Below, piece after piece: positions 22,792-23,852 of a stretch of 64,000 bases of DNA. Positions within the stretch are counted from its first letter, which is position 1. The number at the start of each line of letters is the position of its first letter. Both the position numbers and the translations under genes were made by a program. The notes beneath the pieces are model-generated. The model did no database searches. It had not been told where the DNA came from and saw only the letters and a list, made by a program, of their open reading frames with translations. Origin of the DNA: a virus; the IMG/VR virus record IMGVR_UViG_3300008261_000005. One strand, given 5' to 3'.

Positions 22792-23028
22792 TTACATTAA
22801 CGGCAATCCGCTGTTCTTGGTCAATTCAATATTTTCTTTGATAATTTCGTTCATAATCAAACGATCTTCTCGAGTAAGACTATATAACATTTCACTTACT
22901 GAAACCCCGCCACGCATAAACCAGCTAATTCGATAAATTTCGTCCTTTATATCATGGACATATCTATCATGACTCTTGAGAAAATCTTCTAGCTCAGAGT
23001 CCGGGATATAAATTAGCTTCTGGCGAAA
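22792..23028 (-). CDS. -1 frame extension of gp26-like protein (78 codons; not in ORF track)
   Basis: Frame open from 23052 to TAA at 22794-22792: FRQKLIYIPDSELEDFLKSHDRYVHDIKDEIYRISWFMRGGVSVSEMLYSLTREDRLIMNEIIKENIELTKNSGLPLM. The first ATG is only at 22917. It is entered by a -1 slip at T-TTT-TTC (23031-23025). Confidence 0.7.
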   Translation of the reverse strand, partial: FRQKLIYIPDSELEDFLKSHDRYVHDIKDEIYRISWFMRGGVSVSEMLYSLTREDRLIMNEIIKENIELTKNSGLPLM

Positions 23029-23852
23029 AAATTTGCTTGATCCAATGTTACTTCAACGTCAGTTTCGTGACTACAAGCAGAACATGTTACATGTTGCTTG
23101 GGCATATTCCACATTTCCTTGTTTCTCTCAAGTTTTTCTTTGATTGCTTTGAAGAATTTACGGTCACTGTTTTGCAACCATTCAGCAATAGTATCACCCT
23201 CAGTGACAGTTTCACCACCAACTTGTATATTATCAATACTGATTAAAAATAATTCTACTTGCATTTCGCTAATACGTTTGTATATAGAATCGTTTACTTC
23301 TTGTGTTTTAGCTTCATCTTCAGCAGCTTCTGCCTTACTCAATTGATACAGCATTTTTTGTAATTTAAAGTTTTCCATATTAAACGTTGTAACTTCTGCA
23401 TAAGATAACGGTCTAATAGTAATAGTTAAATCATCAATTTGAATCTTACCATCAAAATTAACACTACTATAGTAGTCAAGTATTCGTTGTAAGTCAACTA
23501 CAAATTCATTCTCAGCTTTACAAGCTGGACAATTATGTGTTAATTCCATTTCTCCACCGTAAGTTGCAATCCTAATACCCACTAACAGTGCATCTACATC
23601 TGTACTGGGAATTACAGTAGCATCAGGAATGTAAGGACAGCAACTTTCAATAACTTTGGTAGTTGCCTCTCCGTTGAACAGGGCATCGGGAGTTTTCATT
23701 ATGATCTCATCCATGCCAGTCATTCCAAAGATTGGAACATTATTATAATCTCCTAAAAGTGAACCTGGTGGATAGAACAGTCCCTTGCTGGGCAGTGCCA
23801 TGTAAATTTTAGGTTGTCTAAAATACTTTTGTAAAGGGTTATTAGCTGTCAT
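23013..23852 (-). CDS. gp26: gp26-like baseplate hub / tail assembly chaperone (279 aa)
   Basis: Likely start MTANNPLQKYFRQPK at 23852 after GGAG. Contains LPSKGLFYP, MTGMDEI, CPACKAEN, IRPLSY and a C-terminal CSAC, typical of gp26/gp51-family proteins. Confidence 0.75.
   Translation of the reverse strand: MTANNPLQKYFRQPKIYMALPSKGLFYPPGSLLGDYNNVPIFGMTGMDEIIMKTPDALFNGEATTKVIESCCPYIPDATVIPSTDVDALLVGIRIATYGGEMELTHNCPACKAENEFVVDLQRILDYYSSVNFDGKIQIDDLTITIRPLSYAEVTTFNMENFKLQKMLYQLSKAEAAEDEAKTQEVNDSIYKRISEMQVELFLISIDNIQVGGETVTEGDTIAEWLQNSDRKFFKAIKEKLERNKEMWNMPKQHVTCSACSHETDVEVTLDQANFFARS

Follow-up and report, generated by a model that had tools for sequence, protein, structure and literature searches.

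The tail assembly chaperones gpG and gpGT of phage lambda are reportedly produced by a −1 frameshift (Levin 1993), and this frameshift is said to be conserved in the tail chaperones of long-tailed phages (Xu, Hendrix and Duda 2004). The lambda slippery heptamer is G_GGA_AAG. In phage P2, a −1 frameshift on T_TTT_TTG is likewise reported to give the tail chaperones gpE and gpE+E' (Christie et al. 2002). A review describes the tail-chaperone −1 frameshift as conserved in long-tailed phages "except T4" (PMC5009743). In T4, gp26 (208 amino acids, aa) and gp51 (249 aa) are baseplate hub assembly chaperones (Leiman et al. 2010, PMC3004832, Table 2). The subject of this study is a gp26-like gene in a 64,000-nucleotide (nt) stretch of viral DNA, referred to here as the window, from IMG/VR record IMGVR_UViG_3300008261_000005, an uncultured giant phage related to T4; the record is 132 kb long and, by CheckV, 38% complete. 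From sequence comparisons we consider it about 90% probable that this gene is decoded in two ways, a −1 ribosomal slip near its end giving a 353-aa long form in addition to the 279-aa short form. The gene, the slip site, and the two reading frames are arranged as follows:

23013..23852, minus strand: gp26-like baseplate hub assembly protein, 0-frame open reading frame (ORF; short form, 279 aa), assigned by translation, PF12322 and phrog_150
23852..23850, minus strand: ATG start of the gp26-like ORF, read from the sequence
23025..23031, minus strand: slippery heptamer U_UUU_UUC, 0-frame codons AAU UUU UUC for N274, F275 and F276, assigned by phase and conservation
23015..23013, minus strand: 0-frame stop TAA of the gp26-like ORF, read from the sequence
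22795..23025, minus strand: −1 frame extension of 77 codons (RQKLIY...GLPLM), assigned by translation, conservation, polymorphism ratios and an AlphaFold2 (AF2) model
22792..22794, minus strand: −1 frame stop (TAA), immediately next to the stop codon of convergent ORF 21883..22791

The terminal codons of the gp26-like ORF are GCA AAT TTT TTC GCC AGA AGC TAA, which place the heptamer three codons before the stop. In the −1 frame, the sequence beginning with the C of TTC is CGC CAG AAG and onward, and joining the extension after F276 gives the 353-aa form with the junction NFF/RQK. The original prediction had described this ORF end with its codons and overlapping heptamers, a −1 frame open to a TAA abutting the convergent stop at 22791, and no ATG until half-way through that frame. 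All of this could be read from the sequence; the frame holds 77 codons counted from the heptamer, and its first ATG, GTG or TTG in the window is codon 37. The convergent ORF (302 aa) belongs to no known family and is separated from the −1 frame stop by zero intergenic bases, and a terminator scan between these two convergent genes found no terminator-like hairpin.

In its outline this arrangement resembles lambda G/GT: a −1 slip would occur in a tail-assembly gene, a few codons short of its stop, giving two products with a common N-terminal part, for which we propose a fixed ratio, and the gene adjoins a probable tape measure gene. The heptamers differ, that of lambda being G_GGA_AAG and that of the window U_UUU_UUC. 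P2 is reported to resemble the window in having a contractile tail and a tail-assembly gene that adjoins the tape measure gene and undergoes a −1 shift close to its end, on a heptamer rich in U.

The TTTTTTC motif by itself is within chance expectation, with 12 occurrences in the window and approximately 25 expected from shuffles, twice the number found. Among the copies in the window, only the one at 23025..23031 combines slip phase with a position shortly before the end of a long ORF and a −1 frame that continues for long after it, and the octamer TTTTTTCG was found once in the window, at this site. A second in-phase TTTTTTC is present at 26722-26728 on the plus strand, inside the portal gene (26366..28093); because the −1 frame there closes after 4 codons, a slip would only truncate the product. 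The gp26-like site was judged to be more than chance because it is conserved across more than 200 related loci. TTTTTTCG was invariant in 79 of 79 related viral contigs (96-41% protein identity), always 1-4 codons before the 0-frame stop, and in every complete locus of the 79 the −1 frame was open for 72-75 codons past that stop. The finished genomes of the cultured phages Atu_ph07, RaK2 and CBB, with 27-33% protein identity, have the same TTTTTTCG site. In a second scan, which used a fused homologue as query and covered 45 further loci, TTTTTTCG was present in 43. Two variant sites were seen, TTTTTTA (U_UUU_UUA) in locus L137 and TTTTTCC in locus L123, and both loci retain the −1 ORF. Among cyanophage loci of the S-PM2 type, TTTTTTC occurred in slip phase in 80 of 80.

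Conservation at the site extends to bases that the protein sequence leaves free. The eight bases of TTTTTTCG were 100% identical, with all three of their synonymous sites frozen as compared with a mean third-position identity of about 56%, and the codon following the heptamer was invariably CGN (Arg). In loci L006-L009 and L036 a −1 frame stop lies directly 5' of the T run, which confines the shift to TTT TTC plus one sense codon. The original prediction had named two overlapping slippery heptamers, A_AAU_UUU and U_UUU_UUC, either of which would give NFF/RQK. Only U_UUU_UUC proved to be conserved; A_AAU_UUU is lost where the preceding codon is AGT, ACT, CAT or CGT.

Sequences downstream of the heptamer were then considered as a source of a stimulatory RNA structure. 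The candidate elements in the window are these:

23019..23024, minus strand: 6-nt spacer from the heptamer to the first base of the candidate helix
23010..23018, minus strand: AGCUAAUUU, 5' arm of the candidate long-range helix that would stimulate the slip, 9/9 pairs with 22923..22931
22923..22931, minus strand: GAAUUAGCU, 3' arm of the candidate helix, located where the extension encodes R-I-S-W, assigned by pairing and compensatory changes

A helix of at least 8 bp anchored 6-7 nt after the heptamer was found in 76% of the loci, as compared with 20% at control positions, and its mean length was 9.6 at the heptamer spacing and 6.4 at the controls. The 3' partner of the helix shifts position between subclades. 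In 24 divergent loci a 10-bp stem was 98.8% paired and had 4 compensatory pairs, far above slid controls. The stem of the window subclade has 9 bp and spans 96 nt; in six sequences, which were chosen post hoc, it was 100% paired, with 2 compensatory pairs in a locus of 67% identity (L004). Rfam contained no family matching at the slip site. We tentatively suggest that a stimulatory helix is present in this window.

These features of the site and its surroundings bear on the possibility that the slip is made by RNA polymerase rather than by the ribosome. Addition of one U by the polymerase on the T6 run would leave a minority of the mRNAs with an in-frame fusion (..NFFRQK..). In favor of this, the site is a homopolymer and would yield an identical protein. 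However, in all loci with TTTTTTCG/TTTTTTC the run has exactly six T and never more, and bacterial polymerase begins to slip efficiently when a run reaches about 8-9. Both the phase (N NT TTT TTC) and the C after the run are invariant, and the helix at 6-7 nt, a spacing typical of ribosomal stimulators, is both enriched and covarying. We therefore regard polymerase slippage as improbable.

The extension itself has the properties of coding sequence. It was exactly 77 aa long, with zero indels, in 58 distinct sequences, and residues R1, K27, W35, M37, R38, G39 and R55 were invariant, R1 being the first codon after the slip. Conservation by codon position in the −1 frame was 0.71/0.85/0.57; it was three-periodic only in that frame and collapsed after its stop. 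The ratio of nonsynonymous to synonymous polymorphism (pN/pS) of the extension was 0.49 in the −1 frame, as opposed to 0.94 and 1.44 in the other frames. By segment, the −1 frame values were 0.60 for residues 1-36 and 0.44 for residues 37-77, with the other frames at about 1 and 1.3-1.6. The body and the extension were folded separately with AF2, and the model of the extension consisted of four helices with a mean predicted local distance difference test score (pLDDT) of 90.8. This model had no fold match in the PDB, and its matches in BFVD were uncharacterised small phage ORFs only.

A search of 1.84 billion representatives with a profile of the extension returned 329 proteins, most of them truncated small-ORF calls. 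At least 22 of the 329 were divergent proteins of 319-351 aa that are naturally fused in frame, the extension domain following a PF12322 body. Their junction reads ..F-R-x-K-L-I.., and their DNA has no T run at this point (CAA TTT AGA CAA). A word-index protein search for longer forms gave 2 fused forms, each matching PF12322 alone. Judged by these comparisons, the extension is a real protein segment that is very probably translated as part of a long protein.

It could be argued that the downstream ORF is instead a second gene, translated alone through re-initiation, translational coupling, or a non-canonical start. GenBank annotation assumes as much (S-PM2 'gp51', CBB_249, Atu_ph07 gp687); in S-PM2 an ATG follows the gp26 stop by 3 nt, and an early ATG, GTG or TTG (residues 2-7) is present in the −1 ORF of 15 of 59 loci. 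Yet in 31 of the 59 loci, the window included, the first canonical start is the invariant M37, so that the conserved residues 1-36, which are under purifying selection, could not be made by separate initiation. In addition, conservation starts exactly at the Arg codon after the heptamer, two genes would leave the frozen TTTTTTC without explanation, in-frame fusions exist, and T4 gp51 carries its tail in frame. Two separate genes thus appear even less probable than polymerase slippage.

The short form was examined for its family and fold. It matched Pfam PF12322 (T4_baseplate) with 66.6 bits (cut-off 24.5, E 3.3e-18), residues 55-277 aligning on profile positions 38-219 of 219, and it matched phrog_150 (PHROG 150, baseplate hub); the gp26-like identity that had been proposed for this ORF is therefore sound. 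PF12322 was the sole family in the Pfam scan, which gave no tail-assembly-chaperone family. Cysteines C108, C111, C257 and C260, forming two CxxC pairs, were invariant in 65 sequences and likewise in the fused forms; they indicate a putative zinc ribbon in the body. The AF2 model of the body had a pLDDT of 87.7. Foldseek of this model against the PDB gave no match, all E values being above 0.3, and VIA-align found only a generic helical hairpin (residues 147-218). Searches of PDB sequences with the body and with its 817-aa neighbour had no matches.

There were 1349 homologues of the gp26-like protein, and the best 120 all had lengths of 262-294 aa; the 0-frame stop is thus conserved, which excludes an assembly indel. 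An artefact or decay, in the form of a homopolymer indel from assembly or sequencing or a pseudogene of a once-fused gene, is hardly credible, because although homopolymers are error-prone and fused forms occur in nature, the frame break recurs at one and the same octamer, both in over 200 independent loci that derive from different samples and in the finished genomes of four cultured phages, and the position of the 0-frame stop is conserved. The programmed −1 frameshift first suggested for this gene is accordingly supported: relatives keep the heptamer and the −1 frame, their downstream ORF is mostly start-less, and their 0-frame stop is retained.

The relation to T4 is of particular concern, because T4 gp26 and gp51 both match PF12322, as does the window protein. 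T4 has two PF12322 genes, whereas RaK2, Atu_ph07, CBB, S-PM2 and this record have one each. T4 gene 26 ends GAG TTC TTT GAG TTA CTA TAA with gene 25 directly behind it, and has neither a slip site nor an extension; T4 therefore lacks this frameshift, as had been supposed. T4 gp51 consists of a PF12322 body (residues 1-201, covering the whole profile) and a 48-aa tail in frame. In the Synechococcus cyanophage S-PM2, gp26 (S-PM2p207) has the same heptamer, ending TCT TTT TTC GCA TAA, at the homologous C-terminal ..FF motif. The −1 ORF itself runs through the heptamer, and the S-PM2 'gp51' (S-PM2p208, 57 aa) is this ORF truncated to an internal ATG. When a profile of 46 distinct cyanophage −1 tails was compared with a profile of T4-like gp51 tails, hhalign gave 97.4% probability and E 1.1e-11. 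Given this homology of the −1 tail of cyanophages with that of gp51, T4 gp51 would be the in-frame equivalent of the frameshift product.

For tails of the window type the relation is less direct. The S-PM2-type tail has 59-66 aa and is clearly gp51-like, whereas the window tail has 77 aa and is faintly similar: window-type or fused tails gave hhalign E values of 0.008-0.22 against T4 gp51 or the cyanophage tail, with less than 5% probability, although the register was sensible. Because this direct similarity is faint, we base the equivalence of the window tail and the gp51 tail on the cyanophage bridge and on the slip site, which is identical and falls at the homologous ..FF motif. Precomputed Pfam assignments of T4-like gp51 homologues (P0275-P0366) include a second family, PF28602, which is presumably the C-terminal tail; T4 gp51 itself, scanned locally against Pfam with E up to 0.1, gave PF12322 only, as did the precomputed Pfam assignments of the window-type fused forms.

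Several results weigh against the frameshift reading or parts of it. RNAalifold over all 45 sequences gave no consensus structure, the window region folded no better than shuffles (z = −1.42), and the six sequences used for the window-subclade stem were selected after the fact. The window's own 77-aa tail gave E values of 0.008-0.08 against gp51 and cyanophage tails, which are not significant, and the extension profile had no match in the T4 and S-PM2 genomes. In the virion table of CBB, neither CBB_250 nor CBB_249 is listed, and their neighbour CBB_251 is (PMC5259590).

The ribosomal frameshift that we favor would operate in the following way. Most ribosomes would pass U_UUU_UUC and stop three codons later, producing the 279-aa PF12322 body with its putative zinc ribbon. 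A fraction would slip back by one base while tRNA-Phe occupied the P site on UUU and the A site on UUC, both tRNAs re-pairing with UUU; a single bacterial tRNA-Phe would serve both codons. The slipped ribosomes would translate the 77 codons of the −1 frame and produce a protein of 353 aa, composed of the body and a four-helix C-terminal domain (..QANFF/RQKLI..). The slip is probably promoted by an RNA helix whose 5' arm starts 6-7 nt downstream of the heptamer, and the candidate in the window is the long-range 9-bp stem. The two forms would correspond to T4 gp26 (short) and gp51 (body plus C-terminal tail), and during late infection one gene would supply both, in a fixed ratio, to the assembling baseplate hub and tape-measure core. 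We infer from sequence the ribosomal nature of the slip, its efficiency, the role of the helix, and the binding partners of each form.

Three features are located upstream of the start codon of the gp26-like gene:

23859..23862, minus strand: GGAG Shine-Dalgarno-like motif, 6 nt before the ATG, read from the sequence, with a putative function
23878..23885, minus strand: TATAAATA, motif resembling T4-type late promoters, 26 nt ahead of the ATG, read from the sequence
23910..26363, plus strand: probable tail tape measure protein, 817 aa, divergent neighbour and possible client, assigned from context

TATAAATA matches the T4 late-promoter consensus and may act as the late promoter of the gp26-like gene. 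The window also contains, at 16960..17805 on the plus strand, the gene of a gp55-like late sigma factor. Because TATAAATA lies upstream and the window encodes this sigma factor, the gp26-like gene is probably a late gene. The gene set of the window is that of T4-superfamily late genes and includes gp6-, gp25- and gp5-like baseplate genes, the gp55-like sigma gene, gp46/47, portal, prohead protease, and major head protein. The closest cultured relatives by gp26-like protein are the giant myophages RaK2, CBB, GAP32, 121Q and Atu_ph07 (27-33% identity), and megablast of the region against GenBank phages found no near relative. At 42102-49232 on the plus strand there are three consecutive large genes (701, 800 and 716 aa) with matches to tail-fibre N-termini and to RCC1-like ('regulator of chromosome condensation') repeats.

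The 817-aa neighbour had no Pfam or PHROG match. Its neighbours in a language-model atlas were tape-measure families (score 0.91, to be read as a lead only), and its homologue in RaK2 is annotated as tape-measure-like (TMP-like). Its homologue in CBB, CBB_251, is a virion protein detected by 29 peptides (PMC5259590). In the window its start codon and that of the gp26-like gene are 58 nt apart and divergent. A long divergent gene beside the gp26-like gene is kept in 27 related loci, with products of 645-961 aa; these often have a Gly-rich N-terminal stretch, and the start is always located about 60-70 nt from the gp26-like start on the opposite strand. From the language-model neighbours, the RaK2 annotation, the synteny, and the CBB virion protein, we conclude that the neighbour is probably the tail tape measure protein. 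Prediction of a complex between the gp26 body and residues 118-817 of this candidate gave a score of 0.00, which is evidence for neither side. The synteny in T4 is similar, gene 26 being divergent from the 51-27-28-29 operon that contains tape measure gene 29.

The likeness to lambda and P2 has limits. In lambda the gene pair is located upstream of the tape measure gene, on the same strand, between the tube and tape measure genes, whereas the window gene is divergent; none of the window ORFs scanned matched a tail-tube family. The body in the window is larger (276 aa, with the putative zinc ribbon) and the extension smaller (77 aa) than those of lambda G/GT, and no sequence-family or PDB fold match to lambda-type chaperones was found for the window protein. 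The genes of P2 are reported to differ in the same manner, belonging to an unrelated protein family and lying between tube and tape measure on one strand. The original prediction had seen in this locus a mirror of lambda G/GT beside the tape measure gene, and a link between gp26/gp51 proteins and tail assembly chaperones. The probable −1 slip near the stop bears out the first of these, but the same-strand upstream placement of lambda does not hold, and the neighbour is a probable tape measure gene; the second stands as a functional analogy, no similarity of sequence or fold having been found. We take the parallel with lambda G/GT to be a functional analogy only.

A literature search found no report of a frameshift in the gp26 family, with most subscription journals outside its coverage, and none of the GenBank records examined, including RaK2, CBB, Atu_ph07 and S-PM2, annotates one. 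The RaK2 record omits the −1 ORF and leaves a 365-nt 'gap' after gp26; CBB_249 and Atu_ph07 gp687, like S-PM2 'gp51', are the −1 ORF cut at an internal ATG. The annotation of the examined records, and probably of many more, would be corrected by the frameshift reading.

Tail-chaperone frameshifting is among the most conserved viral recoding events, and here it would be carried by a different family, gp26/gp51. It would span much of the T4 superfamily, from giant phages of enterobacteria and Agrobacterium to abundant marine cyanophages, and the deeply conserved U_UUU_UUC with its movable downstream helices may offer a study case for frameshift stimulation. The frameshift reading also provides a concrete hypothesis on the role of gp51, a matter that has stood for decades. 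A further proposal, which we advance with more doubt than confidence, is that the gp26/gp51 family is the T4-superfamily counterpart of G/GT, that its ancestral state was one gene with the U_UUU_UUC slip, and that T4 was derived from it by duplication. If this is true, the frameshift was kept in jumbo phages like RaK2 and Atu_ph07 and in cyanophages, duplication replaced recoding in T4, and the textbook exception, "except T4", would vanish. The 'catalytic' gp51, long without explanation, would then be a long form similar to GT, with a tail that brings a second partner to the tape-measure/hub complex.

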